From: Heterodontus francisci
Lineage: Eukaryota
Length of the DNA: 64,000 nt
Direction of reading: 5' to 3'
NCBI RefSeq assembly: GCF_036365525.1
Contig: NC_090404.1
Span: 4,340,001-4,404,000 of the forward strand
The translations under genes and the position numbers were made by a program. The notes under the pieces were generated by a model. The model was not told the DNA's origin. It saw only the letters and a list, made by a program, of their open reading frames with translations, and made no database searches. Below are positions 31,064 to 60,892 of the stretch, piece after piece. Positions within the stretch are counted from its first letter, which is position 1. Each line of letters starts with the position of its first letter.

Positions 31064-31918
31064 TTGGATGTTACTTTTTATTTATTCCTCACAGCTGCAG
31101 CTCTCTTAACTGGTAAGTTCACAATTTACACAAGGCCGCCTTTCACATCTTGATCATATAGTTCATCGGTCTGTTCCCTGAAAACAAGGGTAACAATCGA
31201 TTGATCGGAAGTGAACAAAGCAATCCGGATCTACCTTGAGTCAACACTGAACACTGTTTGAGCAAACTCGACAAGCTCCCCCAATAAGAGAAATTGGAAG
31301 AGTTGAGCTGAGATTACAGGGGAATGGCAGACAGACATGGCCCTCCCCACCAGGGCTAATGACAGACACCGATAGACACACGAGTCTGACACCCACAGGC
31401 CGTTTGTCGGCTTCCCTTCACAATCGATCTCAGCACCTACCTGTTGCAGCTTCTGAACTGTGGAAAGTGTATTTGTGTTTACCTGTCCTGATTTCTCAGT
31501 TAAGTATTGGGGGTGACGGGCTGATTCTGGGAGATCGACGTTGGTTAATTTGATATTGCTCTGTTCTTGCAGGATATTGTCGAGGAGACTCCGTTTCACA
31601 GACACCGGCTGTAATCACAGTAAGTGAAGGAGACGATGTTCGGTTGCACTGTGATTATACAACTACAAGCAGCAGCAATCCTTACCTATTCTGGTACCGT
31701 TAGTATCCCAGTGGATACATGGAATATCTGCTGCAAAGAAACAAATACAGTGAGGACCGAGAAAGATTTCCAGAGGACCGTTTTTCAGCGGAGCTCGATG
31801 ATTCGATCCGAACCATCCCGCTGAAAGAATCTAAAACAGAACTGACAGACTCTGCGGTGTACTACTGCGCACTGAGACCCACAGAGACACAGAGCTGGGC
31901 TGATCCTGAACAAAAACT
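31064..31918 (+). pseudogene. TCR alpha/delta-type V pseudogene 3, nearly intact, with a good 23-RSS
   Basis: Leader (TTG)DVTFYLFLTAAALLT 31064-31112 with GTAAGT donor. V exon 31573-31879: GYCRGDSVSQTPAVITVSEGDDVRLHCDYTTTSSSNPYLFWYR*YPSGYMEYLLQRNKYSEDRERFPEDRFSAELDDSIRTIPLKESKTELTDSAVYYCALRP. RSS CACAGAG-23-ACAAAAACT (31880-31918). Confidence 0.93.
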
Positions 31919-32214
31919 GTCAGAGAGTCTCTCAACATCACAGCAAGTTAGGGAAACATTGTGATTGGAGGCGAGTGTCTGCATTAGTGATTAGAACTTG
32001 TACTGTTAATGTTAATATACAGTTATCCTTTTTCCTGCAATGTTTCACTTTTCAAATAATGATCTAATTTCCTTTTAAAAGTAACGATTGAATCTACCTC
32101 CACCAACATTTGCAGGCAGTGTCTTATGGAGCATAACATCTCGCTGAATAAAGGCAAAATTCTCTTCCTTTTTCCTCTGTTTCTTTTCGCAAGTATCTAT
32201 GTGTTTTTGCAGAT

Positions 32215-33680
32215 TGGCAACACCGGACAGCCCGCTTCTACCTCCTTCCGAAAATTCACAAACAAGACTGTCCTGGCAGACCCATCGTTTCAGCCTGTTC
32301 CTGCCCCACTGAACTTATTTCTTTCTATCTTGACTCTATCTTTTCTCAACTGGTCCAGTCTCTTCCCACCTGCATCCGTGACTCTTCTGAAGCCCTACAT
32401 CGTATTTGACAATTTCCAGTTTCCTGGCCCACACCACCTCCTCTTCACGATGGACGTCCAATGTTTCTACACCTCCATCCCCCACCAGGAAAGTCTGAGG
32501 GCTCACCGCTTCTTCCTTGAACAGAGGTCTTCGCTATGCCTGCCTTTTTGTGGGATATGTCGAACATACCTTGTTCCAGTCCAACTAAGGCCCCCTGACC
32601 CAACTCGTTTTCTGGTATATTGATGATTGTATCGGTGCCGTTTCCTGCACCCGCCCCGAACTGGAAATCATTGTCAACTTTGCTTCTAATTTCCACCCTT
32701 CTCTCACCTTCACATGGTCCATCTCCAACACATCCCTTCCCTTCCTTGACGTCATTGTCTCCATCTCTCGGGATAGGCTGTCTCATATAAGCCCACAGAC
32801 TCCCATAACTACCTCGACTACACTTCTTCACACCCTACCTCCTGTAAGGACTTTATTTTATTATCCCAGTTTCTCGGTCTCCAAGGCATCAGTTCTGATG
32901 ATGCAACCTTCGGCAACAGCGCTTCTGACCTGTTTTCCTCTTTCCTCAACACAGCATTCCCCGTACCATCCCACACCACCTCCCCCGCTCCACCCCCACA
33001 GCCACACTGTTGTTGACGGGGCCCTTCAACCGTGTCTGGCCTATTTCCCACACTTCTGCCCGCACCCCTTCCCCTCCATCCCAGAACCGCGACAGGGTTC
33101 CCCTTGTCCTCACTTTCCACCTCACCAGCCTCCATATCCAAAGGATCATCCTCCACCATTTCTGCCACGTCCATCGTGATGCCAATACCAAATGCAGCTT
33201 CCCCTCCTCTCCCATGTCAGCATTCCGAAGGGATCATTCCCTCCGCGGCACCCTAGTCCACTCCTCCATTACCCCCAAAGGCCGTCTCCTTCCTATGGCT
33301 CCTTCCCATGCAATCACTGGAGGTGCAATACCTGCCCCTTTACCTCCTCTCTCCTCACTATCCACGGTCCGAAACACTCCATTCAGAAGAAGCAGAGGTT
33401 TGCTTGTACTTCCTTCAATGCAGTATACTGTATTCGCTGCTCGCAATGCAGTCACCTCTGCACTCGGGAGACCAAAGGCAGATTGGGTGACCGCTTTCGG
33501 GAACAGCTCTGCTCAGTCTAAAAACATGCCCCGAGCTTCTTGTCGCTTGTCATTTCAATACCCGCACCCGCTCCCACCCATACAAAGTCCCGCCCCCTCC
33601 CACCCTCCAACTCCCCCCCTCCCCCCAACTCTGCTCTCTTGACGACTTCTCTGTCCTGGGCTTGCAGCAGTGTTACGTGT
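32215..33680 (+). mobile_element. Penelope-like element, decayed RT plus GIY-YIG; its 3' part resumes at about 35490-35840
   Basis: LLFTMDVQCFYTSIPH, YIDD-like tggtatattgatgat, RVPLVLTFH, AVYCIRCSQC...RETKGRLGDRFREQL. Confidence 0.88.
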
Positions 33681-35475
33681 GCTGTGGACAGAGTGGAACC
33701 AGTGGATGGAGCTTACTTAGGTTTCCAGAAGGCATTTGATAAGGTGCCACATCAAAGATTATTGCAGAAAATAAAAGCTCATGGTGTAGGGGGTAACATA
33801 TTGACATGGACAGAAGATTGGTTAGCTAACAGCAACAGAGAGTCGGCATAAATAGGTCAGTTTCTGAATGGCAAGATGTAACGAATGGTGTGTCACAGGG
33901 CTCTGTGCTGGGGCCTCAACTTTTTACAATTTATATAAATGACTTCGATGAAGGGACCGAAGGTATGGTTGCTCAATTTGCTGATGACACAAAAATGGCT
34001 GGAAAGTAACTTGCAAAGAGGACATAAGAAGGCTACAAAGGGATGTAGATAGGTTAAGTGAGTGGGATAAGATCTGGAAAAGTGTGCATAATGTGGGAAA
34101 GTGTGAGATTGTCCACTTTGGCAGGAAGAATATAAATGAAACATGTTATCTAAATGGTGAGAGATTTCCGAGCTGTGAGATGCAGAGGGATCTTGGTGCC
34201 CTAGTGCATGAATCGCAAAAGGTTAGTATGCAGATACAGGACATAATTAGGAAAGCTAATAGAATGTTATCGTTTAATTGAATACAAAAGTAAGCAGGTT
34301 ATGCTTCAGCTATAAAGGACGTTGTCGTGACCACATCTGGATTACTGTGTACAGTACTGGTTCCTCATTTAAGGAAGGATGTAAATACGTTGGAGGCAGG
34401 ACAGAGATGGTTTCCGAGATGAATACCTGGAATGGATGGGCTTTCTTACCAGGAAAGGTCCTGGGGAAAATTGATAGACAGAGAGATTTGGGTGTTCAGG
34501 TCCATTGTTCCCTGAAGGTGGCAACGCAGGTCAATAGAGTGGTCAAGAAGGCATACGGCATGCTTTCCTTCATCGGACGGGGTATTGAGTACAAGAGTTG
34601 GCAGGTCATGTTACAGTTGTATAAGACTTTGGTTCGGCCACATTTGGAATGCTGCGTGCAGTTCTGGTCGCCACATTACCAAAAGGATGTGGATGCTTTG
34701 GAGAGGGTGCAGAGGAGGTTCACCAGGATGTTGCCTGGTATGGAGGGCGCTGGGTATGAAGAGAAGTTGAGTAGATTGGGATTATTTTCATTCAAAAGAC
34801 GGAGATGGAGGGGGGACCTGATTGAGGTGTACAAAATCATGAGAGGTTAGATAGCAAGAAGCTTTTTCCCAGAGTGGGGGATTCAATTACTAGGGGTCAT
34901 GAGTTCAAAGTGAGAGGGGAAAAGTTTAGGGGGGATATGCGTGGAAAGTTCTTGACGCAGAGGGTGGTGGGTGCCTGGAACGCGTTGCCAGCGGAGGTGG
35001 TAGACGCGGGCATGATAGCATCTTTTAAGATGTATCTAGACAGATACATGAATGGGCAGGAAGCAAAGAGATACAGACCCTTAGAAAATAGGCGACATGT
35101 TTAGATAGAGGATCTGGATCGGCGCAGGCTTGGAGGGCCGAAGGGCCTGTTCCTGTGCAGTAATTTTCTTTGTTCTTTGTTCTTTGAAAGATAGGATGAG
35201 GTTGGCTTGCATCAGCTGGAACTTAGAGGAGTAAGAGGCGACTTGATTGAAACATATAATATCTTGAGGGGGCTTGACAGGGTGGATGTGGAAAGGATGG
35301 TTCCCCTTGTGGGAGAATCTCAAACTGTTACTGTTTAAAATTAAGGTGTCGCCCATTTAAGACCGAGATGAGGAGAATTTTTTTCTCTCAGAGGGTCGGC
35401 AGTCTTTGGATTCCTCTTCCTCAAAAGGCAGTGGAAGCAGAATCTTTGAATATTATTAAGGTAGAGTTAGATATT
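33680..35475 (+). mobile_element. CR1-clade LINE inserted in the Penelope, itself containing a younger CR1 3' end (about 34455-35187)
   Basis: FQKAFDKVPH, QGSVLGP, FADDTK. The inner copy has LYKTLVRPHLECC and a (ttctttg)n tail. Confidence 0.88.
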
Positions 35476-36032
35476 TTATTTATTTTCATCATTCGTTTTT
35501 TAACTATGTGTCTCCCCACTTTTTGTTCGTGTTTGTGCTTTTGGCTTGGGCTGTTAATTATTCTGTCATTTAACATCCTCTATGCACTAATGCTTCGTCC
35601 TTCACCACACGATTGGCACTCTCTTTGCCTTTGCCCCATGACCTCCTTGTCTGTTAATCGCTGACCATCTGTCCTATCAACACTTTCCCTTTTGTTCCCT
35701 TTACCCCCAACCCCGCTTTATTTGTATCTAAGCTATTACATTTCTAAACTTTGCCAATTCTGATGAAAGGTCAGTCACATGAAACGTTAACTCTGCTTCT
35801 CTCTCCTCAGATGCTGAGTGTTTCCATCACGTTTTATTTTTATTAATGTTTTTGTGTCCAGCTGTTACTGACCCTCCCTCACACGGGCAACAGTTTCTCT
35901 TTATTCACTCCATCAAAATCTATTTTTTCTTCATATGTCACTCAGTGATCTTTTATTCTTTATATTGTATCCTGCTTTTGTTGGGATTTACTATTCACAC
36001 ATTCTCTAAATGTTTCTCTCTCTATCCTGCAG

Positions 36033-36377
36033 AGAGCGGCCTTGAAGGCATCACTCATCAACGAAAAGAAGATGTGACAGCTCGGGGAGGAGTGATCTCC
36101 ACCATGACCAGCTCCTATACTGAGGTGACGAGAGTTTGCCTGGAATGGTAGCGGGATGGTCTCTCCGTGGATCCGGAGAAATTCTCATCCACTGCACCGA
36201 CGGGTTCATTGACAATTCGTCTTTTGCAACCCGGCGCTTCACCACATCTTTGGTCAAAAAATACACGGCCGTCAGTGAAACAGTTTCACAGGTGGCAGCT
36301 GCCGATACCAGGAAATACTTCTGAGTCTTAACACCGCACACAGCCGTGTAGGTTGGGAAAGAGCCTATACATAAACT
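36033..36377 (+). pseudogene. TCR alpha/delta-type V pseudogene 4 with 23-RSS
   Basis: CTGCAG acceptor; ESGLEGITHQRKEDVTARGG...SSYTEVTRVCLEW*R, frameshift, then RRFTTSLVKKYTAVSETVSQVAAADTRKYF*VL (second Cys codon is now TGA). RSS CACAGCC-23-ACATAAACT (36339-36377). Confidence 0.75.
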
Positions 36378-37159
36378 GAAGATGTTATGACAAGAATACT
36401 GTGTCAGTGAACTCGCGGTATCATTGTATTTCATGATCGCTACTGAGTGCAATGGTTTAATGGAGAAGCGTAACAATTCTTTCATCCATTTTTCCCTCAG
36501 TGTATCATAAACGGACAGATTGACAATTTTATCGAACATTGTGCACCCAAAGGATTTTATTTTTGTTGACCACAAATTACCGATATCTCGAAAACACTTG
36601 GACTCCCAAATTCCTTCATTCCTCCACAAGAGTCAGCGTCAGAATCAATGACACCATTTCTGGCACAGAATTCCACATTCATACTTCTTACTTTGTGATA
36701 AACTTCCTTTTATTTAAAAGTCAATCTTCTGCTGTTTGAAAGCTCACACTATTGGCTATCTTTATTGTCGCTGTTTCCACAGGGACCAGCAGAGTTTCTT
36801 CTTTGCTTTGCATTGTTACAGTCCATTTTACCAGATTGTGTTGATGAGCGGTCACCTCTTCCTGGGAATGCCCCGCCCACCCACCCCCAACACCTTGGAT
36901 TCAGTCTCCAATCCTCTCAGTGATCCTCTCCGCTCAAGAGGACACCTGTCGGGACCCAGGAACCTCCCGGCAGAAAGGAGGTTCTGTTTGGAATGACTCC
37001 GTGATTGACTGGGCAGAGGAGGGCTGAAGCTCCCACAATTCACAGCAGCTATCAAACGCCTGGGATGTCGCTGACAGTGACGTTTCAGTCAATGATATTG
37101 CATTTGCGAATGTGTGGGTCGTGAGCCATCTGACATCAGCAAACAAGACCTTCAAGTTT

Positions 37160-38088
37160 TTGAAAGCAAGAAATGCTGGAAATACTCAGTAGGTCTGGCA
37201 GCATCTGTGGAGAAGAAGCAGAGTTAATGTTCATTGAAACGGACAGAGATGTGAGCTTGAGAGCGGGGGGACTGTTGAAATCGCAAGCAACCGGAAGCTC
37301 GGGGTCATGCTTTCAGGCTTGGCGGAGGTGTTCCACAACGCGGTCACCCAGTTTGCGTTTGGTCTCCCCAATGGAGAGGAGACCATATTGTGAGCAGCGA
37401 ATACAGTATACTACAGTGAAAGAAGTATGAGTAAATCGTTGGTTCACCTGAAATGAGTGTTTGGGGCATTGGATAGTGAGGAAAGAGGAGGTAAAGGGGC
37501 AGGTATTACACCTTCTGCGATTGCAGGGGAAGGTGCCTTGGGAAGGGGACGAGGTGGAGTGGGTAATGGAGGAGTGGACCAGGGTGTCGCGGAGGGAATG
37601 ATCCCTTCAGAATGCAGACATGGGAAGGGAGGGGAAGATGCATTTGGTATTGGCATCACGCTGGACGTGGCGTAAATGGCGCTGGATGATCCCTTTGAAT
37701 ATGGAGACTGATGGGGTGGAAACTGAGGACAAGGGGAACCCTGTCGCGGTTCTGAGAGGGGGGAAGGAGTGAGGGTAGGGGTGCGGGGAATGGGCCAGAC
37801 ATGGTTGAGGGTCCTGTCAACCACAAAAGGGGGAATTCCTTGGTTGAGGAAAAGGGGAAGTCATATCAGAAGCGCTGTCATGGAAGGTAGCATCATCAGA
37901 GCAGATCCATCGGAGACAGAGAAACTGGGAGATTGGAATGGAGTCCTTACAGGAGGCTGGGTGTGATGAAGTGTAGTCAAGGTGGCTGTGGGAGTCGGTG
38001 GGATTATAATGGATATTAGCAGATAGCCTATCCCCAAAGATGGAGACAGAGAAGTCGAGGAAGGGAAGGGCAGTGTCGGAGATGGACG
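37160..38088 (-). mobile_element. Penelope-like element fragment
   Basis: SISDTALPFLDFSVSI..HYNPTDSHSHLDYTSSHPASCKDSIPISQFL; homologous to 32700-33650. Confidence 0.88.
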
Positions 38089-38449
38089 GTTTCCCATGAT
38101 ATTTCCTGAATCTGTAACTCTTCAATGCAGGAGCATCTCTGACGGAGCAGAAATACAAATCCCACTCCCCCAACACTGCTGATCCAACCAATGACAAGAA
38201 TGGACCCGCGGCAGCACTCCCTCCAATAACACAATCGGTTCAGAGCAAGAGCAGCAAACGGAAGTTGTGGGCGAGGATGCCGCAGACTCAAAATTTGAGT
38301 GAAGTGTGAGGCGACACTCTGCTGCACTCGGAACTGATTGAGCGGGAATAGTGTCTGTTGAATCTCCAGAATTCTGTGGCTATTCTCCACCTGCTTACTG
38401 TTCAGTTGACTGGGAAATTTAGAGTGGAAGGAGAATGAAGGTACCAGAA

Positions 38450-40170
38450 TAATAGAATCTGAGAGCACAGAGTGAGGCCATTCGGCCTATACTCCCTATG
38501 CCTCTTTGGAAGAGTTCACTAATTCATACCTCACCCCCTACATTTTTCGCATTGTCCTGTTTTGTTGTTCATTTTCAAGTATATATAGAAATCCCTTTCG
38601 GAAATTACTGTTCAATCTGCTTCCACCACCCTTTCAAGCAGTACATTCCAAATCTTAACAAATCACCGTGTATTAAATATAACTCAATTTTCCCTGTCAT
38701 TTTTCTGCAACTCTTTTAATTTGGAGTCCTTGGGATACACAATTTTATGCCAGTGGAAACAGTTACGTGCAATCTACTCTATACTGATATATGGAGAACA
38801 ATCCCAGCTTTCTCTCGTCCCTCTGCATAAACGTTCATCATTTTACTTATTCTTTAATCGGGGGTGGGCATCTCTGGTGAGGTCAGTATTTAATACCTGT
38901 CTCTACTTGCCTTTGATAAGGTGGCGGTGAGCTGACTTCTTGAACTACCGCAGTCCTGGGGGTGCAGGTTCACCCACAGTGCTATTAGGAAGGCAGCTCC
39001 AGGATTTTGACCCAGCAACAGTGAAGGAACGGCGCTTTCGTTTCAAGTCAGGATGGTGTGTGGTTTGGAGGGGAACTTGCAGCTGCTGGCATTCCTACGT
39101 TTCTACCGTCCTTGTCCTTCTAGGTGTTAGAGATCACGGGAATGGAAGGTACTGTCCAAGGCGTCTTGGTGCGTTGCTGCAGTGCATCTTGTAGATGGTA
39201 CACACTGCTGCTACTGTGTATGGGTGGTGGAGTGAGTGAATGCTGAAGGTTGTGGATGTGGTGCCGATCAAGCGGGCTGCATTCTCCTGGATGGTGTCGA
39301 GCTTCCTGTCTGTTGTTGGAGCTGCACGCATACAGGCAAATGGAGGGTATTCCATCACACTCCAGACTTATGCATGTAGGTGGAGGACAGGCTTTGTGGA
39401 GACAGTAAGTTAGTTACTCGCTGCAGAATTCCTAGCCTCTGACCTGCTCTAGTAGCCATAGTACTTTTATGGCTGGACCAATTCAGTTTCTGGTCAATGA
39501 TAACCTGCAGAATTAGGTCCGTGGGGGGTTCAGCAATGGCAATGGTATTGTACATCAAGGGAAGATGGTTCGATTCTCTTTTGTTTGAGATGGTCATTGC
39601 CTGGCTCCTGCGTTGTGTGAAGTTTACCTGCCACTTATCAGCCCAAGCCTGGATGTTGTCCAGTTCTTGCTGCATCTGGATACGGACTGCCGCGAATGGT
39701 GCTGAACATTGTGCAATCCTCAGCGAATATACCAATTCTGACCTTATTATTGAAGGAAGGTCATTGACGAAGCAGCTGAGGATGGTCTTTCCTAGGACAC
39801 TACCCTGAGGAACTCATGCAGTGAAGTCCTGGGACTGAGATGATTGACCTCCAACAACCACAACCATCTTCATTTGTCCAGGCATGACTCCAACCAGCGG
39901 AAATGTTCCCCCTTGATTCTCATGGGCACCCGTTTTGCTCAGGCTCCTTGATGCTCTACTCCTGCTACCATTTTGGTTTACTTCCTCTGCACACGCACCA
40001 ATGTCTTGAGATTCTTTTTCAATAGTGGGGACAGCTGTTAAGCTAACAGGCATATAATTTCCTGCTGTCTGTCACACCCCTTTTTGCGAGTTTTCAATCC
40101 TCTCGGAGGTTTCCAGAATCTAGGGTATTTTGGGAGATTGCAACCAATACATCCACTATCTCTACAGCGA
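38450..40170 (-). mobile_element. Decayed LINE fragments (CR1 3' end; CR1/L2-group RT C-terminus)
   Basis: MQQELDNIQAWADKWQVNF, IDQKLNWSSH, LDTIQENAARLI. Confidence 0.78.
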
Positions 40171-40749
40171 CTTATTTTAAAGGGAGATGGAGTGGAGCAA
40201 TGTGAGGGGATCCCTCGGCTGGTGTTCAGTGAGTTCAGGAAGATGGTATCAGAGGGAATGGAGCATGGAGAGAAGATTCCTGGGGTGATCTTCGGTGAGT
40301 TCAAGGAGATGGTGTAAGAGGGAATAGAGCAGAACAAAGAGGAAGTTCAACTGAGGCGGGGGGGGGGGGAGGCAGGGGGGTGCGGAGGGCAAATAACGAG
40401 GTATAGTAGAAATGATGGAGGCAGTGATTCAACATGTGCATAACAGAAAAGTGGACACTGTGTGTGTATCTGACAGAACAGGTGGACAGTGTGGTTTGTG
40501 TATATATCAGTAAATTTGAAGTTAGAGTCTATGTGTCAGATAGACCTCAGAATCCGGGGCTCATTCCTACCGTTTGTCCTCCCTCTTGTGTCTACCAGAC
40601 TCTGGCAGTCATCCCAGCAATTAAATTGATTCAAATTCATTGAAACCCTAATTAACTATTTAATTAATAAATAGAGGAGCAACTAATCCGGAGGGAGGAG
40701 ATTACTGCATTTAATATTTATAGTAGAAGGCTAGCGCTAGGGACCATAT

Positions 40750-44215: not shown

Positions 44216-44454
44216 TGTTCATTTTTCTTTGAATTGTGCCTCCTTCTTTGTCTAATAGGCTTCAGGATCAGGAAGTCATTCCCAGGGGTTGTCCTCTCTG
44301 ATGTATTCGATAGTCCCTTGAATGTGGGCTCCCTGTTGTGGAAAATGGACCCCAGGCTCTTGGGATAATTCCCAGCATTTATTCTTAATGGTCTATCGTT
44401 CCAGATATTCATTAGTCTTGAGGAATCATTCCCAGGGTTTATTGTCTCTCGTGT

Positions 44455-45538: not shown

Positions 45539-45666
45539 CTTCACCAGAGTGACGGCAGCGCTGTAGAAAATGCTCAGGAAGAACAGGATGATGAATGTGG
45601 AAGCGGTTGTCCAGATGTTGCCGCTCTCTTCCTCATTGTCTTCAATCCAGATGTGGCCTGAGTAAT
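45539..45666 (-). CDS. IGHM: IgM transmembrane exon TM1 ([43 protein letters not shown])
   Basis: Acidic extracellular spacer plus the conserved antigen-receptor TM motif (W-T-T-A-S-T-F...F-x-L-S-x-F-Y-S). AAG acceptor and GTGAG donor; missed by the ORF track. An alternative in-frame CAG acceptor 9 nt further in is possible. Confidence 0.94.
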
Positions 45667-46199: not shown

Positions 46200-47260
46200 A
46201 TAGCCTGGTGCTTTTGTTTGTACGCTTTAATACATGTGTATGTGTGCATAAGTATCTGTTACTTTGCATCACTCAGTGCGTGTCCATGGCTTGTGTGTGT
46301 GAGATTTAATGTATGTTTTAATGCATTTCTTTGTGCACCCGCCTGTGAATGTCTCAATGTGCGTATTTATATCTTGATGCCTGTGTGTTGTGTCCCTGTA
46401 TGTTAGTATGTGCTTATGTGCCAATGTGTATCAATGTGTGTTTTCAAGTGGCCGCGTGTGTGTGTATGTGCATGTGCGTGTGTATAAAATATATCATCCT
46501 TAATGTTTTGTCTTCATTCATCCATGTGTGTGCATGAGCATGATAATGTTTGTTTTTGTGTGTGGTTTGGTCCCCATGCGTGCTTCATGTTGTGAGCTTT
46601 TGTGTTGACAGATGTCTTTATGTTTTCCTGTGTGTCAATGTGTGTTTATGTTTCCATGTGTGCGTATGAGTTTGTTAATGTTTGTTTTTGTGTGCTTCTG
46701 TCCCCATAAGTGTGATAATGCGTCTGCTTTTGTGTTGATGTCTACGTTTATGCATTAATATGTGTGATTATGTGCACATGTGTGCTAATGTGTGTGTTAT
46801 GTGCATGTTTTTGCATCCATGTATGTGTCATAATGTTAATGTTGGTGTCTATTTGTGTGTGAGTGATCGTGTTAATGTGTCTGTCTAAATGTTTGTGTGC
46901 AGATGTGTTAGTCTGTTAATGTGAGAGTATGTTTCCATCTAGCTGTGTTTATGTCTATGATAATGAAAGCTTTTCCGTCTCTGTTTCTGTGTTTGTGAGA
47001 CTGTACTAATGTGTACATTTATGTTTATTTTTGCGTGGGTGACTGTGAAGTGTTTATATCTGCGTTTGAGTCTGTTTGTGTGTGTAGGTGTAATTGTGTG
47101 GTTGTGCATTTGAGTGTGTTTATGTGTGTTGTTTTGTCTGTGTGCCTGCGCATCTTTATTCTTGTTCAAAGTTTTACAGAGAATAAATAACCGGGTCTGA
47201 CGCTGATGGTGTGCATTATGGAGAATATTCTTCACTGTTCTGTGTATAAATGTATTCTGT
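46200..47260. repeat. About 1 kb degenerate TG-rich low-complexity tract in the CH4-TM1 intron
   Basis: Continuous tgtgtg/tatgtg composition. Confidence 0.85.
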
Positions 47261-47312
47261 GCGAGATGTCATCTGACATCATCTGAATGACTGTAACAAT
47301 GCAACTGATGGA

Positions 47313-47522
47313 TAAAAACAGAAGTTCTGGAAATACTCAGCAGGTCAGACAGCAGCTGTGGACAGAGAAGCAGAATTAACGTTTCAGGTCGGTGCCCTTT
47401 TCACACACCTGAAATGTTAACTCTGCTTCTCTCTCCACAGATGGTGCCTGACCAGCTGAGTATTTAAGCATTTTCCGTTTTTATTTCAGATTTCCCCCAT
47501 GTGCAATATTTTGCTTTTATTT
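47313..47522. mobile_element. Short palindromic Penelope-terminus-derived element; related pieces at about 18222-18380 and 63715-63835
   Basis: aatactcagcaggtcagacagcagctgtggacagagaagcagaattaacgtttcagg followed by its approximate reverse complement. Confidence 0.7.
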
Positions 47523-48436: not shown

Positions 48437-48442
48437 TTTATT
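48437..48442 (-). terminator. PolyA signal for secreted mu transcript
   Basis: AATAAA about 30 nt after the secretory stop codon. Confidence 0.7.
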
Positions 48443-48470
48443 TAAGAATTGAAATGCAATCGAGAAATTC

Positions 48471-48865
48471 TCATTGACATGAATTAACGGTGTCCAACAG
48501 TGCAAGGGAAATGTTCACAAAACTCGGTTTACCGCTGGATTTATTAACTGTTCTGTTGATGATCTTCAAGGGGATCGCTTCATGTCCCACCACACAGGAG
48601 TAAGAAGCGCCGCTGGCCCACTCCTCCGCTGCAATGGATAACAGGCTGTAGATGAAGAAGGAGCTATTGTCGTTCTCCGCCATCACCTCGGTGTTCTTGT
48701 AGTTGCCGGGATTCACCGACTTGTCATTGACAGTCCACTTGACGAAGATCTCTCGGGGGGAGAAACCTCTCACTAAGCAGGTGAGGGAGAGGAACCTCTC
48801 AGCGGAGATTTCTTCTGCTGGGGGCAGGAGAACAGACACAGATGGTTCCCGCAGATCTTTCCATG
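48471..48865 (-). CDS. IGHM: IgM CH4 exon plus secretory tailpiece; internal donor after 48533 for the membrane form
   Basis: CAG acceptor. Encodes [16 protein letters not shown]...[17 protein letters not shown]...[23 protein letters not shown]|[20 protein letters not shown]. The tailpiece has an N-I-S sequon and a penultimate Cys, and there is a G|GTAAA cryptic donor. Confidence 0.97.
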
Positions 48866-49335
48866 CTGAAAAATTAAAATAAATGTCAATAAACGAGACA
48901 ATTTCAGAGACAATGACACCGGTGGTTAAATGTGAGAGAAATTGAGAAGGTTTTCCTTTTCCTCTCTGGGGCCTGTGCTGTTTTCCAGCTGGCGCAGAGG
49001 CGCTGCAATCCTGCTCGCCGAGAACATAAAGGATTAGACTGGAAAATTACATAGAACTTGCAGCACAGGAGCAGGCCATTAGGAGGAGCTAGCCTATGCT
49101 GGTGTTCATGCTGCACACGGACCTCCTCCCACCTTACTTCAGCTCTTTCTATTCCTTTCTCCATAATCTACGTATCCAGCGTCGCCTGAAATGCATCACC
49201 TCTGGTCCCAGGGAGGTTCATTAGTGAATTACAATTAAATTATCAGCGTAATCCATTCAACCACTTAATTGGGCCTTGCACAAACACCGGCAATAAGCAC
49301 AACCTCTGACTTATTGCTTCAATCACATTGCTCAC

Positions 49336-49641
49336 CTTCCTTGTGGATGGAATCTCTGAGAGGAGTCGGCAGATCCTGATGGCTCACCACACAGTAGAAC
49401 ACAGCCTCACTCAGCCAGGCTTGTGTCGAGATGTCTACGGTGCTGATCACGCTGTCGGGATCCTCTCCGGGTTGGACGGCAATCTCTGATTTCAAAGGCT
49501 TCTGTTCTTGTGTCCAGGACACGTTGACACCATAAGGAGCATTAGACACGACGCAGGTTAAGGTGACCGTGGCCTCCAGTAAGACCTGTTCTATTGATGG
49601 TGGCAGTAGTTTAATTACTGGATGATTGCACTCGGAAGAAT
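49336..49641 (-). CDS. IGHM: IgM CH3 exon
   Basis: CAG acceptor and GTGAG donor. Encodes [33 protein letters not shown]...VSWTQ...[21 protein letters not shown]. Confidence 0.96.
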
Positions 49642-50139
49642 CTGTAGAACAGAAATGAGAGTCGAAGAAATCTCCATCTTCAGGATCAGGACGCGAGTAT
49701 TTAACTATCACTTTCTTCAGGAGGGGAAAAACACCTTTCACTTCAACACTGTCGTTCATGGGAAGGGCAACGATTTGTAAAATCTGGGACATCCAAGCGG
49801 ATTACACCTCTGCTGAATATAATGGCTCTGTCACCCCAGGACATGAGCTACACATGTAATTCATACTGGCTCAAAACGAATGAAATTACGAATTTTAGGA
49901 CCAACTGGAAACAAAGTTATTGTTCTGGTGCCTTGTCAGTATATTTGGGGAGATGAAAATGTTCAGCAACCAGTCAGAGGAGGGGCGAAAGGTTGGTAAA
50001 ATGCAGTCCCAAGGTTTTTGTTTTTGTGTGGTGAGGAATAATTCGCAATACCGGATGAGATAGTTTTCTAATATCTGCCACGAGTGAGTATTTATGTGTC
50101 GGCCTGGAGTTAGAAGGCGATCTGACCACAGGACTGTAA

Positions 50140-50690
50140 TAAGAACATAAGAATAAGAGGAGGCCATTCAGCCCCTCGAGCACGTTCCGCCATTCAATTA
50201 CACGATGGCTGAATTGTATCTTAATTCTGTTTACCCATATATAACCCTTAATACCCTTACCTGTCATAAATCTATCACTCGCAACATTAAAGTTTTCAAT
50301 GGATGTCAAGCTTCTAAAGCGAGTTGGGGGAGAGAATTCCAGATTACCGCTATCTACTGTGTGAATATTCCCTTCCTGATATCATTCCTGAATGACCATG
50401 GTCTAATCTGAAGGTTATGCCCCCTTGTTCTGAAGTTCCTCACCAGAGGAAATATTTTTCTCCATTGACTCCATCAATTCCAGTAAACATCTTAACCACC
50501 TCAATTAGATCACCCTTTAATCTTCTATACTCAAAGCAATACCAGTTTGGCCTGTGAAACCTGTCCTCATAACTTAACCCGATCAGCCCCGTTATCATTA
50601 TGGTCAATTCTTGTTGCACCACTCCCAAGACCAATACATTCTTCCTGTGCTCTGCAGTCCAGAATTGAACACAGTTTTCTAAATAGGGTA
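50140..50690 (-). mobile_element. CR1 3' fragment in the CH2-CH3 intron
   Basis: LENCVQFW..EYRRLKGDLIEVVKM; aagaacataagaa tail. Confidence 0.8.
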
Positions 50691-51042
50691 GATGCTCTTT
50701 CTGGCACCTGATTCCGAGGCCGTTACCAAGAAAGGGTTCCAGATGCCGATTGCTGCTCCGTGTATGATTAGCCCATTCAGGATAAAGCTGATTTACAGGC
50801 CACCTCACTCACTACATGACATCACAGTAGAGCTAATCATTCTTTCATGATGTGATGACATGTTGAACCGTGAGCAATCCTAATTTCTAATTTCTAAATC
50901 CTAAACTCACAGCGAAATAACACATAAGAACTGCACGATGGCGATTTAGAAATTGTTCTTTGTACTAATTCCAATAAATTCCTGTCTTTCAGTAACATGG
51001 AGTACAGAAAGATGTGGAGCTTCCTGGGACTGTGCATCTTAC

Positions 51043-51360
51043 CTGGAGATCCGGTGATGTTTTGGCTTTGGGTGGCCGCTTGATGGGAGACCTGGCAGGT
51101 ATAGACCGTGTTGGTGAACCATTCCCGAGCGGGAACTGTCAGCCGACTGGTTGCTGAGAAGTTCCCGTTCGTTTCACAGGCGGGAGAGGTGACGAAGCCC
51201 GATTCCATGGGATGTCCATCCTTCAACCAACTCACGGTTATTGCTTCTGGATGGAAATCGATGATTGAACACACGACAGTTGCAAATCTGCTGCTTGTGA
51301 TTTCTTCACTGGAAGTCTGGGTGAGGATAACAGTTGGATGGACGATGTCACCTTTACAAT
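51043..51360 (-). CDS. IGHM: IgM CH2 exon
   Basis: AAG acceptor and GTAAG donor. Encodes [15 protein letters not shown]...[21 protein letters not shown]...[20 protein letters not shown]. Confidence 0.96.
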
Positions 51361-51572
51361 CTTTAAGAAAAAACACGTTAGACATTTCTAGAAGAAATTA
51401 ATAACTAATACAAACTGTTCTTATATTTTAACAGGTTATTTGCATCAAGCAGGCACTAACTGATGTTTCCAGGGGTCTGAACTGTGCACAACACTCTAAA
51501 TGTGGAATAGCCAAAGTTCTACACAAGATCCTTCTAGCTTTTCTGTTTTTCCACAGTTTCCACAACACTAAC

Positions 51573-51869
51573 CTGGAATTTCCTTGATCCAGAGCGACTC
51601 TCCGCGTCGAACCTCGCAGTAGATTTTGCTGCTTCCCACCTCTGAATCGGTGATGGTTAATTGGCTGCTCAGGGTGTAGGTTCCCTTCTTGTTCAGCACT
51701 GACGGGTAAGTCTTCAAACCAGTGGTGATCGGTTCTTTACCTTTCTTCCAGGAAACGCTGGTGATTTGGGGCATGTAGTCCATCGCCAAACAGCCGTAGG
51801 CCATGGAGCCGTCGGTGTTGGGTTGTTCACAGGAGCACAGGCCGTAAAGGGTTGGGGGAGACGGTGTCG
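51573..51869 (-). CDS. IGHM: IgM CH1 exon
   Basis: TAG acceptor and GTTAG donor. Encodes (A)[15 protein letters not shown]...YGCLAMDY...VSWKK...[17 protein letters not shown], a C1-set Ig domain of shark mu type. Confidence 0.96.
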
Positions 51870-53399
51870 CTAGGAAAGAATGGCAAATTGAACAAGTTAG
51901 ACTGTGATTCCTGCTTATTAAATAACCAGACAACTCGCAATTCGACTCCAGCTGGAAACTGATTCCAATATTTTCTGATTAAAACCTTCATCCGCATTTG
52001 AGCTGCGATCAGTTACATCATTTGGTGATCATCACCTGTCGGTCTCCTGGTCAGGAACACACCTCTCTTTCAGGACCTGTCACATTACTAAAGTAAGAGC
52101 CTTTTGAAGTTATCTCAATAAGGTATTTTTCATTGGATTAAACTGAAAGAGGAGTTTCCCACTTTGTTCGGCCAATATTTATTTCTAAATCAACAACACT
52201 TGGTCAAAAAACACGCGGCATTTAGTTTTTGGAAATTTCTTCTCTGCAAATTGACTGCTGGGTTTCCCCGCACCTCCACCTCCTCCCAGCGCCCCTCCCC
52301 ACCACCAGCAGACCACCCCGCACCACCCCCCCACCAACCCCCACTCCCCCTCCAAATAAATAGCAACTAGCCTGAAAAAGTGCCATTGGAATGCGTGCTT
52401 ATAAAATGAACTTAATACTGTAAACTTGAATACCAGGCAAATTCATTCCATTATTTTCCCATAAAAACCTACAAAACATCCGATCATGCTTATGACCCAG
52501 GGTGATAAATTCATAGACATGATAGCTGAGAAGAAGGCCATTCGGTCCATCAGGCCTGTGAAAGATCACTCCAGCGATCCCGCTGACCTTCCAATTCCTA
52601 ATCTTCTTTTCAAAATTTCATTTTATCCAGCTCTTTTAGATTCTATTTACAGCCCTCTTTCTGACAGGACATTCCAGATCCGAGCAACCCCCTGTGTAGA
52701 AGAGTAGATTCATACCCTCTTCCTTCATTCTTTTGACGCTGATTTTAAATCAGTGCCCTCGACAGACCAACTCACTGATCTGGGCAAATTGGTTTCTGAA
52801 TTTCTGTGTAAAACATTCATTATTCAAAACACCTCTAGCAGACTTCATTTTAATCTTCTATGTTCCCATAATAATGAAGAACTTTTACAATAAATAGTTG
52901 AAGTCTACTTTAAAATATGGACTGAATCATTTAGTACACAGATGTCAGAGGGGAATTTTTACACAGCCTAGTTTCTGGAATTAAAGTTTTTAATGACTCG
53001 GCAATGACTCTAAGCTATCACTTTCCTTTTAAGTACTTGAAGATTGTGACTTCTGTTCTATATTATTCGACTGAATGGATTCTCTGGAGTTTGCTTCTCC
53101 CTCCAACTCAAATAATAAACCGAATTAAATCCGATCCCTAAAAATCGGTCATTTGGACTGATGCGCTTTAAAGTTAATTTTCCAAAGTATCTTCCCACCC
53201 CTCACCAGTGAGAACTGGTGTTGCTGACTGTGTCGTGACAGACACTTCTTCTTGCTGCTTGCACCGACCATAATGTGAACACCAGGACAGGTTTCTTCTA
53301 CAAATATCTGATATTGTCATTACTTACACATTATAAATCGAGTGAATATCAGTCGGTTCCATGGAAGGAAGGACAAAAGTTCCTGAAGTGTTATTGCTG

Positions 53400-54640
53400 A
53401 TTTGGTCAACTCTCACTTCTGATTTGTGTGGACAATTCAAACACCTGAGGCCTATCGGTAAGATATTGGAAGCTCGCTCACCAATATGATGCAAAAGAGG
53501 TTGCCGGTTATGGTGGCGCAACAGTAGGACATATGGGCTTTCAAATGGCATTAGATAACATGTCACGTAAGAGAACATTCGGAAAATGGAAGCACGTGGA
53601 TTAAAGGGGTCTCAGTAGCCTGTTCAGGTACAGGAAACAGAGAGTGACGGTGAACCAATGATTTTCTGACTGGAGAGAATTAAGCATTGCGATCCCCCTT
53701 GGGTCGGTCATAGGGTCATTATTATTTTTGTTAAATATAATGACGTGGTATTGGGTATGGGGCGTAGAATTTCGAAGGTCAAAGATGATACTAAACAAAT
53801 TGTGAGCAGGATAGTATCAGAGTTCAGAAGGACATGGGCAGGTGAAATGATCAGAGACAGAGCAAATGCAATTTAATGCGGTTAAATGTGAAGTGCTGGA
53901 CCTTTTGAGGAACAATACGGAAAATTAATGCAATCTAAATGGTCCTATATTGAAGGGGTAGAAATGCAGAGGGACCTGAGTTGCATTTTCACAATGTTTT
54001 TTTTCAAGGTGGTTAAGAAAGCGAATGGAATACTTGGTCTTGTAAAATGGAGTACGAATTACAAAAAACCAGGAAGTCATATTAAAGTATTACAAATCAC
54101 TAATTAGGCTGGAGTATTTTTGCACAATTCTGGCCATCACACTTTCGAAAGGATGTCAAGGCTTTGGGGGGAGTGTGGAGGGAGTTTACCAGAATGATGC
54201 CAGGAATGAGGGAGTACAGTTGTATGGAGTTATTATACGAGCCGAATTGTTCTCGTTAGGCGCTTTCCGATTAGTTATGTTCAAAATTATGGGATGTTTT
54301 GATACAGCAGATAAGGAAAAGCTTTTTCGTCTGAAAAGGGGGTCTGTAACAAAATAATTAATTGTCAAAAAAGAGCGTGGGCGGGTGGTGGCTGCGGAAA
54401 AAGGTTTCTTTCCTGACAGAGGGTGCTTTTCACAGAAGCACAGAACGATTACACCACAAAAGGAGGCCATTCAGCCCGTCGTGTCTGTGCAGGTTCTCTG
54501 CAGGTGCAACCGGCATATCCTCGAAGGACATTAATTTGCGTAGTTATGAGGGGAAAACTGGCTTGAAAGATTAAATTGGAGAGCGCTTTGAGAGCTAACA
54601 CAGGCATGACGGGCTGAATGGCCACATTCTCTGCGAGAAC
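53400..54640 (+). mobile_element. Old decayed CR1 RT fragment in the J-Cmu intron
   Basis: gggcttt caaatggcattaga (DFQKAFD-like), ggctggagtatttttgcacaattctgg (LEYC.QFW-like), gggctgaatggcc tail. Confidence 0.72.
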
Positions 54641-55598
54641 TTTCTGTCATTCTCCCCGACTCAGTAGTATTTGTTATCCCCAATTTAATGGGACGAAAAG
54701 CTTCATAAATTTGAACATCTCTGTGACATATATTTTGTTGCTTTTTATAATGAAAGAGGGTTTTTAAAATAAGAGGTTCTGAGCGATTTTATTCAAATGA
54801 GTCAATCAGATACTGTCAGAGACTTAAAGCATATTGTGATTGACATTGATTGCAGGCTAATGATATCACTTCAAAAATTTCACAAGAGCTTACTTCAGTG
54901 GCTGTGTGCCCTCTGCTGTGACACAATCCAATGATTGCATCTCCCCAGAGTTTACCACTGACTGTGACCTTTTGAAAATACTTGAACTAAATAATGATTT
55001 CAAACATGAGAATATCATGATGGTTATTCGGAGTGGGAGTCTCCACTATCTCCATTTAAAGCGCCAAAATAACTTCCAGTCTCCCATCAGTTCAGAACAG
55101 GCGTTGGTCTCTGGAGCGTTACAATCACTTCCTGAAACTGTTTGTTCTGAAAGTGCACTCAAAATCAGGCCAATCTCATTCAATAATTATCTATATGTTT
55201 AAATATTATTAATTCATTAAAATTTGGCCAAGAATTATTATTAAAATCAATTCATGTGCGTTGTTTCATCTGGACAATTTAATAATTCATATTCATATAT
55301 CTGGGTCGAGGACTCACAGCTTATGAGTTAGATGCAGATTGAGATTCCTTGAACACTGTGGGGAAAATATTCTCAGATCAGGTACAGGACAGTTAAGCTG
55401 CAAAGTAAAGATCCCTCTACATGGCCCTATCATGAGTTGTAATCTCAGACGTCGCAAGTGTTATATTCCGTAGAAAGCCGCCTCGACACCACACTGTCAC
55501 TCTGGGTCAGGTACAGCATCAGTTTAATATAAAACAAAAATTCCCTCAACGCTGTCCCATCAAATATATCCAGGACAGGTTCAATCCGGTTTAGATTA

Positions 55599-55957
55599 GG
55601 GGCGGCACAGTGGCGCAGTGGTTAGCACCGCAGCCTCACAGCTCCAGAGACCCGGGTTCGATTCCGGGTACTGCCTGTGTGGAGTTTGCAAGTTCTCCCT
55701 GTGTCTGCGTGGGTTTTCTCCGGGTGCTCCGGTTTCCTCTCACAAGCCAAAAGACTTGCAGGTTGATAGGTAAATTGGCCATTATAAATTGTCACTAGTG
55801 TAGGTAGGTGGTAGGGAAATATAGGGACAGGTGGGGATGTTTGGTAGGAATGTAGGATTAGTATAAATGGGTGGTTGATGTTCGGCACAGACTCGGTGGG
55901 CCGAAGGGCCTGTTTCAGTGCTGTATCTCTAATCTAATCTAAATCTAATCTAATCTA
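55599..55957 (+). mobile_element. Full-length HE1-like SINE in the J-Cmu intron
   Basis: A box tggcgcagtggttag, B box gggttcgattcc, V-domain-like core, (aatct)n tail and a possible tagat target duplication. Confidence 0.9.
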
Positions 55958-58900
55958 GATACTGAGTAATTCCTCCCTCTACGCTGTCCCCATCAAGTAG
56001 TCCCAGAACAGTTACAATATAGATTAAATATACAGTAAAACTTCCTCTACATTGCCGAATCAATCACTCCCAAGGGAGGCACATTACTGATTACAAACTG
56101 ACCAAATCTCCTTCTACAGTCCGTCTGTTGTGTCTCTGAACTGTTATTTCTGACTGCCACAGACTGGAATTATGATCTCATTGCTGAGGCGCCTCATCAA
56201 ACTTAAAGTCAAACTTTTAGGTTTCTCGGGGGTACAAGTTTCTTAATTAAATGGATCAAGTTGCACTCCTTGAAATGAAACGAACCAGTCTGTTTGCAAC
56301 CTGCAGGGAGGATTCCTCGTCCTGACACAGTGAGCAGGTACACAGAAACAGAACAGACACAAACGGTGCAACAATCGGGCTCTCAGCAGATAGATCTGTT
56401 CAATTGTCAATTTCAATGAAGCTGTTTTATTCTAGTTCATCAATTATCAAATTGTGACCACTCCAAATCTGTATACTCTTTTGAAATTAAACTGATATTC
56501 ATTTCAAAAACTCCCTTCGACCTCCAACTGTTTCTCCCTGTCTGTTTACAATCTTAAAAGCATGTAAGAAAGTTTTGCTTTAAATGAGTACATTAGAAGA
56601 ATACACATTCAGGAAAATTAGATGTCCATAACCAGAACTCAGTGACAGAGTAAGAATTTAGAAAATCAGGAGATATTTATCTTGCAAACTGATTACCCAC
56701 TGGTTTGATACAATTGCAGAATTCAATTTTACAAAAAAAAATAGTTGAACCACTGCTCAAAGTTAATTCATTAAAATCTGCGGTGACACTTGATTGAGCT
56801 GAGAACAGCTGAGTAAGAAATGTATTCTCTAAGTTATTGCTAGACATAATGAAAAAGTTACTCCGATTCTTGAGATTTTGCACTCATTGGAATCCTGGCA
56901 AGTATACTATTGAATTGTGGGAGGTCATTTATGTTTAGTAAATTAGTACAATTATATTCTAAGCTAATATTCATGTTATCTGATTTTATACTGTATTTAC
57001 CATTTATAAATAAATAAAAATAAATAAATTAGTTAATATTACTTCAAGACCAGTTTCTGCCCGGCACCCTGTGAATTAATGGAGTTTTAATTAAGTCATT
57101 ATGACACTTTATCAATATTAAATAATCAACGTCATAGTAATAGATGAAAACTTTCAGACAAATATATTACTTTTGCTGAAATCGAATCACAGTGCAATAA
57201 TTTAAAATGAACAATAAGTTCGAGTCCCGCCCTGCTTTCTCTCTGCAAACTTGTAAACTGCACAGGTATCTGAATGCGTTGATATATTATAAGCTCCTAC
57301 CATTCTCAGCGAGTATTTCACACAATGGATTTAGCCTGGCCGGGGTCACATGTCACTAACTGGGCTGCAACATGGCCTGTTTGTGAAAGCAGCTCTCCCA
57401 TGTTTAAATATCGTTATAAATCTTAACTATATGAGATAAAATATCAAAAATATCCTGGCACTTTGCGATCAGTAACTGTGCAGCCACTATTTAATCACAC
57501 GATGTTTTTAGATTTTACTCCCGTAATTCACACAGTCCCTGTAAATTAATTGCTAAATATATTGTGATTTTTATTGAAAGAAGTTCCAAAATGATCACTG
57601 CAAAACTGGACGAAAACAACTCTTTCAGATCATCTGTGACATTGAAACCTAATGAGGAAATGTAGCCGAGATTTTGCGGATCAATTTAATATTTATTAAG
57701 AATTAAGCATAACTCTCAGGTATAATCTGTTCTTTGTCTATCATTCCATCCTGCGTGCAGCACAACTATGGGAGACAGGATGTTGTTACTGAATTCAAAA
57801 CTAACATTAAACTTTTGTAATTAATTGAATCTGCTTGAATTTCCAGGTGTTATTTGTTTGTCTTTAGCCTTACGCAGTCTGCAAGTTTCTTCAATTTAAA
57901 TAAAATCATATGCACAATTCTTTGACTGCCATTGACCTCTTGTCCCAGGAAAATGGTTAATATTAGATTAGTGATAATTATCTCACTATCCAACAACAAA
58001 TGACATTGAAGAAAGAACATGGAAGAACATGAACTCAAAGAATGCAATAACCGGACAGATATATTACACTGACAAACTGCAATTTACAACGCCTATTTAA
58101 GTTGTAAGTAAATACAAGCTGACATTCACCTTTTTTAATCAGGAATATCACAATTAATTTAAAAGCGCTCATTAACCTGAAAACAGCACTGGAATAAGTA
58201 CACTCTTATTGAAATAATTTCAAGCAAAATTAAAAATAGTCTCCAGCCATAAAGTTTTCCGGTCACGACAATTGTGCGCTTGGCCCGCCAGAAATGTAAA
58301 AGATGATTCTTGAATAATGAATCGATCACAACATGAAAGCATATTTGGTTTATATGAGGACATATTGCCGCATTTTAATTGTTTGAATTGTATTAATTTT
58401 ACTCTCCAATCTGCAAACCTGCTACTTATTCAGTTTGTAATTGCAGTTACATTCCACGTATTGAAGGAGCATTACAAACCATGGCTTAACAGTTCAATCT
58501 GCAATTATCATTTAATTTTTTTTAAATGCCTTGAAATATCCTTTTTTTTTATTTCTGATATCTGCCTGTTATCCGGCTTTCGAATCGTCTCTGAAGCAGT
58601 TTCAAACAAACAGAATGCATCCATTTGATCAGAAAACCTGCAGCCGCTCGATGTCACCCGGGTTAAACAAAGCAGAAACGCCAAATAGTTTTACAAATTT
58701 TACTTTGTAACACAGAGACACACTCTCCTCAGCAGATAAGCTCCAACTCACATCACTGAGGGGCTGAATCCCGCCTCAGTACGTTTCAAGGCGAAGCAGC
58801 TTAATTCCACAATCACTTTCAGCAGAATCAAATGTAACATCCCAAAAAAAACATCTCAATACAGAATCCACCGAGCCTGCCTGTCTCTGAATTACCAAAT

Positions 58901-59597
58901 ATATAAAATAAAGGCAGCAGATTTGTTAGTACAGAGAGCATGTTTAATAAATTAATATTGATTCTGTAGCATATTTCATTGATATTGCCTGATATCACTG
59001 CATTATTAAAAGTGAGGTTATATTAATGCAAATCTGGCCAAAGCTGCAAATTTGTTATTTCTGTAGTTCTTAATTACATCAAAATTTATTGCATTACATA
59101 TGAGCATTCGTAAGCAGTAGATTGATAGATGGCAATTTAATTACCACAAATAAAAATAGATCAAAATATCAGAAGGCTATTTTTGACCACTGAAGCTTTC
59201 TGCATAATTTTATTTCAAACATATTTAAAGACTTATTGTTTCTATTAGATCAGAAAACCTGCAGCAACTAGATGTCACCCAGATTAAACATTGCAGAAAC
59301 GTCAAACAGTTTAACAACAGTTTGGTATTTAAAGTAGCCCAAACACTCAGTCCCATCAACAAATAAACACCAAATCACATCAATCTGGAGCTGAATCCTT
59401 CAACAGCACCGTGTGTAAAGAAACCATTAAGTTCTTTAATCCCTTTGCAGCAGAATCACATAAAACATTGCAACAAATTCGCAATATAGAATCCACCAAA
59501 TCCACTTTTCAGTGAACGAATGTATCATTACAAAAAACAGAAATATAAAATTAAAAACACAAATAAAACAGTTAATGAATAAATGTATGTTTCTTAC

Positions 59598-59645
59598 CTG
59601 CAGTCACCGTCACCATGGTCCCTTGGTCCCAGGAGGCAAGATAGT
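59598..59645 (-). CDS. IGHJ: IgH JH segment (YLASWDQGTMVTVTA)
   Basis: Preceded by an RSS, carries a W-x-Q-G-T-M-V-T-V-T motif and ends in a G|GTAAG donor. Confidence 0.94.
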
Positions 59646-59684
59646 CACAGTGTTACATTCCCTGGGCTGGGTCACACAATAACC
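59646..59684 (-). other. JH 5' 23-RSS
   Basis: GGTTATTGT-23-CACTGTG (plus strand: CACAGTG-23-ACAATAACC). Confidence 0.92.
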
Positions 59685-60010
59685 GGCTCTGCACAGAATA
59701 ATGAGAAATCCATTATTATTTTAAATATTCACACTCCAGAGGCAAAATAAAATCTTGATGGTTCTTTGTAAAATTATAACTGCGTTAATAATTCTTTTCA
59801 CTCTTTATAAATTTCCCTGATGTTTTATATTTCACACAGTAACATATCAGCAATTATTGAAATCACTAACTGATGAATGAATAATTAATCCGTTTATCCA
59901 TAATAAACCGTGCTAGGAGGGCAGTGCTGGACACAAATAGTACTTCACTGTATATATAGTTGGATTGTGAAAGCGAGCACTGACCCAGACTCATCAATTA
60001 GTGCTGAGGG

Positions 60011-60079
60011 AGTTTTTGTATTGACAGTAACTGCTGTGCCACCCAGTATATCACAGTGAGACAAACCGTGTCAAATACT
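60011..60079 (-). other. IGHD: IgH D2 segment (ATATACTGGGTGG, 60039-60051) with 12/12 RSS
   Basis: AGTATTTGA-12-CACTGTG / D / CACAGCA-12-ACAAAAACT. Confidence 0.92.
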
Positions 60080-60853: not shown

Positions 60854-60892
60854 TGTTATTGTACATGTCCAGCCCTGGTTCCTCTCGTTGTG
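60854..60892 (-). other. VH 3' recombination signal, 23-RSS
   Basis: CACAACG, 23-nt spacer, ACAATAACA directly after YYCARD. Confidence 0.9.

Follow-up and report, generated by a model that had tools for sequence, protein, structure and literature searches.

The T-cell receptor (TCR) delta locus is bracketed by two dedicated outside elements, deltaRec and psiJalpha. In that system (named in PMC2137914), the recombination signal sequence (RSS) of a pseudogene segment would delete the J and C of another receptor before use. In the kappa-deleting element of human (Kde) and RS of mouse, an RSS downstream of the constant exons, with the polarity of a J signal, would on use delete C; Kde acts after VJ joining, via an intron RSS, on 35-50% of peripheral B-cell alleles (PMC2137914). 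In elasmobranchs, immunoglobulin (Ig) heavy-chain (IgH) miniclusters and TCR alpha/delta form one linked complex in which TCR-type V exons are interspersed among the miniclusters (PMC12227049), and Ig-V to TCR-delta joins are known (PMC12227049; PMC5931798). We analysed a stretch of 64,000 nucleotides from Heterodontus francisci (contig NC_090404.1, here C34; C34:4340001-4404000), referred to as the window, in which an IgM V-D1-D2-J-Cmu cluster is surrounded by TCR-type V exons, with TCR D and J at a distance of about 1 Mb. Four V pseudogenes (V1–V4) lie behind this cluster on the opposite strand, and the 23-RSSs of V2–V4 face the 12-RSS 3' of D2. The first-pass annotation proposed that these signals form an IgM-deleting element. 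We consider it more probable (roughly 0.74) that they are a by-product of a duplicated layout, with stray joins.

The geometry on which the proposal was built holds. A motif scan of both strands of the window confirmed five of five RSSs in position, letters and spacer. The 23-RSSs of V2–V4 have the orientation of the JH signal and face the D2 3' 12-RSS, and a D2-to-pseudo-V join is, as had been claimed, a legal 12/23 deletion. Such joins would remove JH, Cmu1–4 and the transmembrane exon (TM), in deletions of 23.7, 28.2 and 30.6 kb. The cluster itself reads, on the minus strand, VH-23, 12-D1-22, 12-D2-12, 23-JH, Cmu1-4 and TM, with every frame open. Two plus-strand 12-RSSs absent from the first-pass annotation, at 60052 and 60444, pair with the same V signals by inversion. 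The count of plus-strand 23-RSS-like motifs is by itself only modestly above chance (5, where 60 simulations under an order-2 Markov model gave 1.7 ± 1.3 with a maximum of 5), and the motif at 7980 has no V beside it. It is not their number that makes us regard the three V signals as real, but the fact that each begins directly 3' of a V exon. Four weak minus-strand 12-RSS-like motifs were also seen in the CA-rich Cmu4-TM intron (window 46411-47503); these are probably chance matches in repeat-like sequence and, joined to V3 or V4, would delete TM only.

The facing of D2 follows from the kind of gene to which the signals belong. A 3' 23-RSS was present in 26 of the 27 open-frame TCR-type V examined, and because this V class carries its signal there, a V lying on the opposite strand behind an IgM cluster will face D2. 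The V3 family combines a V-set exon (Pfam), a 3' 23-RSS and linked TCR D and J, as expected of TCR alpha/delta V; its database relatives are named TCR alpha/delta variable, and it is placed outside the Ig clade. Searches of the PDB gave no class for the V exons. The first-pass annotation had left out V1, which is a fourth pseudo-V behind TM.

The window is one of 12 tandem units of ~75 kb (C34 3.98-4.85 Mb), in which JH-D2, V2, V3 and V4 each occur 12 times in the same arrangement, with four TCR-type pseudo-V on the plus strand and one JH-bearing, open-frame IgM cluster on the minus strand of every unit. Identity of the V block to that of the window is 92-99.7% among units, some of which form near-identical pairs 150 kb apart. 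The 12 copies amount to a single arrangement duplicated. The V3 frame is broken by a TAG stop in six units and by a TAA stop at another place in five, and is open in one; since this loss of the frame is recent and repeated, the V3 signals are expected to be intact. The sole open-frame V3 copy of the array (L001:4518-4811) lies in the most divergent unit.

The minus strand carries two J arrays roughly 1 Mb further left, with FGxG in 32/33 and 12/12 hits, and 44 of 46 12-RSS hits head an FGxG J. Beside them, on the same strand, is a D with 12/23 signals, followed by Ig-like V. By layout, these would be TCR J alpha, J delta and D delta; an open reading frame screen did not find TCR constant exons. 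Directly upstream of the TCR D runs a series of Ig-like V with 23-RSSs (L067-L071, C34 3.36-3.40 Mb), a layout that we take to be the one of TCR-delta-associated Ig-like V. The locus is a linked IgH/TCR alpha-delta complex as described for elasmobranchs (PMC12227049), but neither the 12-fold tandem unit of V plus IgM nor TCR-V to Ig-D joins are described in the portion of that account available to us. Outside the array the TCR-type V are of mixed orientation, 69 of the 132 listed being on the plus strand and 63 on the minus strand. Downstream of 35 other JH-bearing clusters there are at least 15 convergent and at least 19 co-oriented V among those listed, and at the 17 clusters with a listed V within 8-70 kb, the nearest listed V is convergent in five. 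Among the V listed, then, position and orientation relative to C are not fixed across loci, and the layout with V facing D2 is not enriched at other clusters.

These observations bear directly on the proposal that the signals are a dedicated element, selected to delete JH-Cmu of unrearranged or V-D-D clusters in the service of exclusion among many clusters or of T-lineage commitment, which we regard as highly unlikely. The window does have an RSS downstream of C in deletional orientation to a 12/23 partner, as Kde does, and the V3 signal is near consensus and unchanged in 12/12 units. In addition, signals have changed at 0.5 of the background rate, one or more convergent listed V occur within 70 kb at 10 of the 35 other clusters, and thymocytes of the nurse shark partially rearrange IgH, carrying many partial, untranscribed joins (PMC2435157). 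However, the partner does not persist after full rearrangement. All three 12-RSSs lie between VH and JH and vanish with VDJ assembly, and the D2 signal is therefore no longer there to edit an assembled gene; cutting would be confined to unrearranged or V-D-D clusters, in competition with the JH signal 326 bases away. The J-C intron holds no replacement RSS, the three lone minus-strand heptamers between V4 and JH (55360, 46119 and 40462) having 6-8 nonamer mismatches, and the sole other facing partner is D2 of the next unit, ~100 kb off. Among the other clusters, 25 of 35 lack a listed convergent V. Moreover, 57 of the 63 listed minus-strand V outside the array are distal to it, and ordinary V-J joining would already delete the array in many T cells. 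Exclusion in the nurse shark has been explained without deletion: unused IgH loci of B cells stay germline, and 97 partial rearrangements or isolates fell within a minilocus, with one possible exception (PMC2435157).

Nor does the assembly record such a deletion. The 33 places where the D1-D2 interval or its D1 5' signal occurs all have JH, and none shows a fixed D2-to-V join; all 12 array copies of V2, V3 and V4 retain signal and flank; and no signal joint at a D2 3' RSS was found in the assembly. Two truncated V3 paralogues, L018 and L019, were considered as D2 joins and rejected, as neither matched the VDJ interval and L018 continues into V4-type flank. Compared with Kde, then, the window loses its only facing partner on D2-JH joining, has no intron RSS that we could find and carries its signals on V exons; compared with deltaRec-psiJalpha, one of the partners comes from within the cluster, being its D2, and the layout varies from cluster to cluster. 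Of the earlier proposal, the legality of the join stands, and one footprint of an IgM D paired with a TCR-type V exists elsewhere in the locus (see below), but a role like that of the kappa-deleting element is unsupported, given a layout that is not enriched, a partner that is lost, no intron replacement and no fixed deletion.

Signal quality was compared using a home-made heptamer-plus-nonamer matrix, rather than recombination signal information content (RIC), derived from 26 open-frame V (L160, the 27th, was omitted, its RSS not having been located). The V3 signal scored 21.8, above 6 of the 26; V2 (13.4) and V4 (11.8) each exceeded only one of the 26, and V1 (-16.7) fell below them all. The JH signal scored 24.3. 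Thirteen V with stop codons elsewhere had signals scoring 8.3-28.4, six of them at 21.6 or more and so comparable with V3. Several points weigh against reading the pseudo-V signals as a by-product. The window VH signal itself, at 12.4, falls in the range of V2 and V4, and a signal with a low score is therefore not necessarily inactive. The heptamer and nonamer of V3 are identical in 12/12 units and also in several open-frame paralogues. Across units, the V2-V4 signals show 3 changes at 48 sites where 6.0 are expected (P 0.15), and with V1 included and the most distant unit (L001) excluded, 1 change against 4.9 (P 0.04). The list of V is a minimum, with 150 of 1482 candidates scored, and the VH search scored 40 of 59 candidates. 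The footprint just mentioned indicates that pairing of an Ig D with a TCR V is possible over tens of kilobases, and from the lack of fixed deletions in the germ line little can be concluded on somatic cells.

The trend of conservation is thus in the direction suggested by the first-pass annotation, but its remark that the RSSs look better conserved than the V frames cannot be taken as established, the difference for V2-V4 not being significant. The V exons show 101 changes at 900 sites against 124 expected. For the dead V1 signal there is 1 change where 2.3 are expected, and for the working IgM signals there are 6 at 96 sites, with 10.9 expected (P 0.08). The ratio for V2-V4 (0.5) equals that for the working IgM signals, and a test of such low power cannot separate neutral from selected. 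These comparisons were pairwise between units, with CpG context taken in and L024 omitted from the IgM RSS control. A first version, comparing RSS with non-coding flank, gave P of about 1e-4 and was dropped, as a non-homologous insertion behind V3 in L002 had been read as substitutions. Stop-making changes amount to 16 site-equivalents of a V exon, the same as all 16 heptamer and nonamer positions, and frames are therefore expected to fail no later than signals.

A probable trace of past RAG activity in the locus is a set of fused signals in sister clusters. A genome-wide pattern search for exact heptamer-to-heptamer fusions of a 12-RSS and a 23-RSS gave five matches and the control none; the matches represent two sites, L024/L079 and L080-L083, both with the exact head-to-head fusion of a RAG signal joint. 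In L024:1087-1887 (C34 4251204-4252004), an inversion spans the 798 bases from the JH signal to the D1 5' signal. One end of it is an exact heptamer fusion at C34 4252003/4252004, at the other JH is joined to the inverted D1, and both reciprocal joints have been kept. In the coding joint the JH end is untrimmed and two added letters are palindromic to the D1 end, and these are likely P nucleotides. VH, Cmu1-4 and TM of L024 are open, and with its remaining signals V could still be joined to D2 and this to D1-J, both D being inverted.

At the second site (L080:1524-1525 and L081-L083, C34 6.70-6.73 Mb, with a junction at 6700551/6700552), an IgM VH has its D1 5' 12-RSS joined head to head with the 23-RSS belonging to a TCR-type V. 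The four copies are at least 99.8% alike, lie in a fold-back block and were counted as one event. The fused 23-RSS matches a V at 6.856 Mb, in signal and flank, with 96% identity; this V is V-set, lies outside the Ig clade (support 100/99 from 7 rows, one VH row in the wrong frame being disregarded and L150 omitted) and is closest to TCR-type V (47%, versus 36% for VH). Over some 21 kb, the flank tracks its paralogue at 90-95%. An inversion would explain the junction, since in the paralogous unit the V and VH are on opposite strands, with the V ~25 kb upstream. The reciprocal coding joint of TCR V and D1 is not in the assembly, where 0 of 5 copies of that V are fused to D1, and a protein search for the foreign V gave no candidate; L041 and L040 were tried as the missing joint and rejected, as both carry IgM-type VH. 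It is likely that pairing of an Ig D with a TCR V occurred once in the germ line, by inversion, and that the fused signals in the sister clusters are inherited RAG scars, one of them between an antibody gene and what is likely a TCR gene.

Were the fused signals instead somatic lymphocyte products or assembly artefacts, they would provide no germline evidence for joining of Ig D to TCR V. The four near-identical copies may indeed have been multiplied by assembly, and the strand-change joint of L024 is not among the 15 of 128 read-contig joints that were listed. We nevertheless give this explanation very little weight: each of the two junctions coincides exactly with the border of the heptamers, L024 retains the two reciprocal joints, the flank of the trans joint follows its paralogue at length, and germline-joined clusters together with a D1-D2 hybrid-joint inversion are known from the horned shark (PMC2193153), the same forms being present here.

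RSS-bounded changes were found in 22 of the 47 JH-bearing clusters examined, all in one assembly. Ten are V-D-D or V-D2 joins, three VDJ, two D1-D2 and two D1D2-J; the others, one each, are V-D1, D2-J, V-D1 plus D2-J, an inversion of the D1-D2 interval and an inversion between JH and D1. Because four clusters share one junction, these represent at most 19 events. As far as homology shows, the joins in all 22 clusters unite parts of one cluster. In two clusters, L060 (7096-7392) and L058, a divergent VH (43% to the window VH) is already joined to D, in L060 with IgM-type C exons; this could be a second VH family or a join between clusters. In the D1-D2 inversion (L056:1478-1860), the inverted interval is bordered by two hybrid joints with the 12 and 22 signals exchanged, the form described for the horned shark. 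The V-DD-J, VDJ, D-D and D-J joins of horned shark germline-joined genes (PMC2193153) also recur here. The difference is that exact signal joints have been kept on the chromosome (L024; L080-L083), neither of which is mentioned in the part of PMC2193153 available to us. Two clusters are disabled by insertions into spacers, of ~3 kb and LINE-like in the D2 3' RSS of L063 (700-3555) and of ~75 bases in the JH RSS of L052 (1087-1162).

A further possibility is that the somatic effect is mainly inversional, a TCR-type V pairing with the 5' 12-RSS of D1 or D2 to give TCR-V/D/JH/Cmu chimeras. These would mirror the IgM-V/TCR-delta trans-rearrangements already known and would add to the repertoire where the V is open. 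The same-polarity 12/23 pairs at 60052 and 60444 would permit this, the single trans footprint used a D1 5' signal, V3 is open in the L001 unit, and joins of Ig V to TCR delta are reported to be common in sharks (PMC12227049). In the window, however, V1-V4 are all broken, and the coding joint of the trans footprint is missing from the assembly, with no copy of its V fused to D1. Read contigs from two runs contain VH-JH joins, leader splicing and the JH-Cmu1 splice at 88% likeness, paralogues included. Fourteen of the 15 joints listed (of 128) were VH-JH joins and one was a leader splice; there was no strand change among these 15, and no end at the D2 3' edge among 20 of 270 loose ends. The runs (X5 and X6) were guessed to be RNA and come from the same sample as X4, and so are not independent support, and the contig comparison covered VH-JH only. 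On balance, chimeras as the main somatic outcome seem unlikely. The features of the window are collected in Table 1.

Table 1. Segments, signals and exons of the IgM cluster and the facing V pseudogenes (positions in the window; mismatches are given as heptamer+nonamer)
Feature	Position	Strand	Remarks
V1, TCR-type V pseudogene	27830..28128	+	stops, frameshift; by translation and tblastn to the V3 family
V1 signal	28129..28167	+	heptamer perfect, nonamer unrecognisable; dead RSS
V2, TCR-type V pseudogene	29142..29440	+	stop, frameshift
V2 23-RSS	29441..29479	+	mismatches 1+3; nonamer decayed relative to its family
V3, TCR alpha/delta-type V pseudogene	31573..31879	+	single stop; open in L001 unit
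V3 23-RSS	31880..31918	+	mismatches 1+1
V4, TCR-type V pseudogene	36034..36338	+	stop, frameshifts
V4 23-RSS	36339..36377	+	mismatches 2+2; nonamer altered in 2/11 units compared (11 of the 12; V4 of L002 lies outside the stretch taken)
IgM transmembrane exon (TM)	45542..45658	-	
Cmu4 + secretory tail	48471..48869	-	open
Cmu3	49331..49639	-	open
Cmu2	51041..51349	-	open
Cmu1	51580..51870	-	open
JH	59598..59645	-	JH-Cmu1 splice end seen in read contigs
JH 23-RSS	59646-59684	+	mismatches 0+1; counterpart is left breakpoint of L024 inversion
D2 3' 12-RSS	60011-60038	-	mismatches 2+1; JH signal 326 bases off, nearest V signal 23.6 kb off
D2	60039..60051	-	
D2 5' 12-RSS	60052..60079	+	pairing with V2-V4 signals would be by inversion
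D1 3' 22-RSS	60391..60428	-	
D1	60429..60443	-	
D1 5' 12-RSS	60444..60471	+	counterpart is the 12-signal of both signal joints in sister clusters
VH 23-RSS	60854..60892	-	mismatches 2+2
IgM VH exon	60893..61199	-	open

The by-product reading can be set out as follows. The pseudo-V probably inherited their signals, as 23-RSSs, from ordinary V genes of TCR alpha/delta type; these signals would face D2 as a consequence of an IgM cluster sitting in opposite orientation inside a V array, the whole unit having been copied twelve times. RAG would normally pair D2 with the nearby JH, and joins to V2-V4 would be rare strays. As nurse shark thymocytes hold partial IgH joins, thymocytes are the likely place for them, the TCR V array and IgH presumably both being open to RAG there. 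Strays through the D2 3' signal would be deletions, and those through the D1 and D2 5' signals would be inversions placing a TCR V before D-JH-Cmu. Occasional RAG activity in the germ line may have fixed such events, including the inversion of an IgM D1 with a TCR-type V at C34 6.70-6.73 Mb.

If the signals did act as a deleting element, IgH loci with many clusters would gain the exclusion mechanism that they have lacked; on the evidence, a by-product is the better reading. It is the signal joints that are worth following. Titles and abstracts yielded neither a shark IgH-deleting element nor retained signal joints between Ig and TCR, although key shark papers or their supplements may already describe some. 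The broader suggestion, to which we give slightly less than even odds, is that the shark Ig/TCR complex keeps signal joints recording cross-locus RAG activity in the germ line, and that IgM clusters and TCR V are live RAG partners. If this is true, chimeras of TCR V with Cmu and stray deletions of Cmu would be expected in lymphocytes, and V genes could have passed directly between Ig and TCR in the course of evolution.

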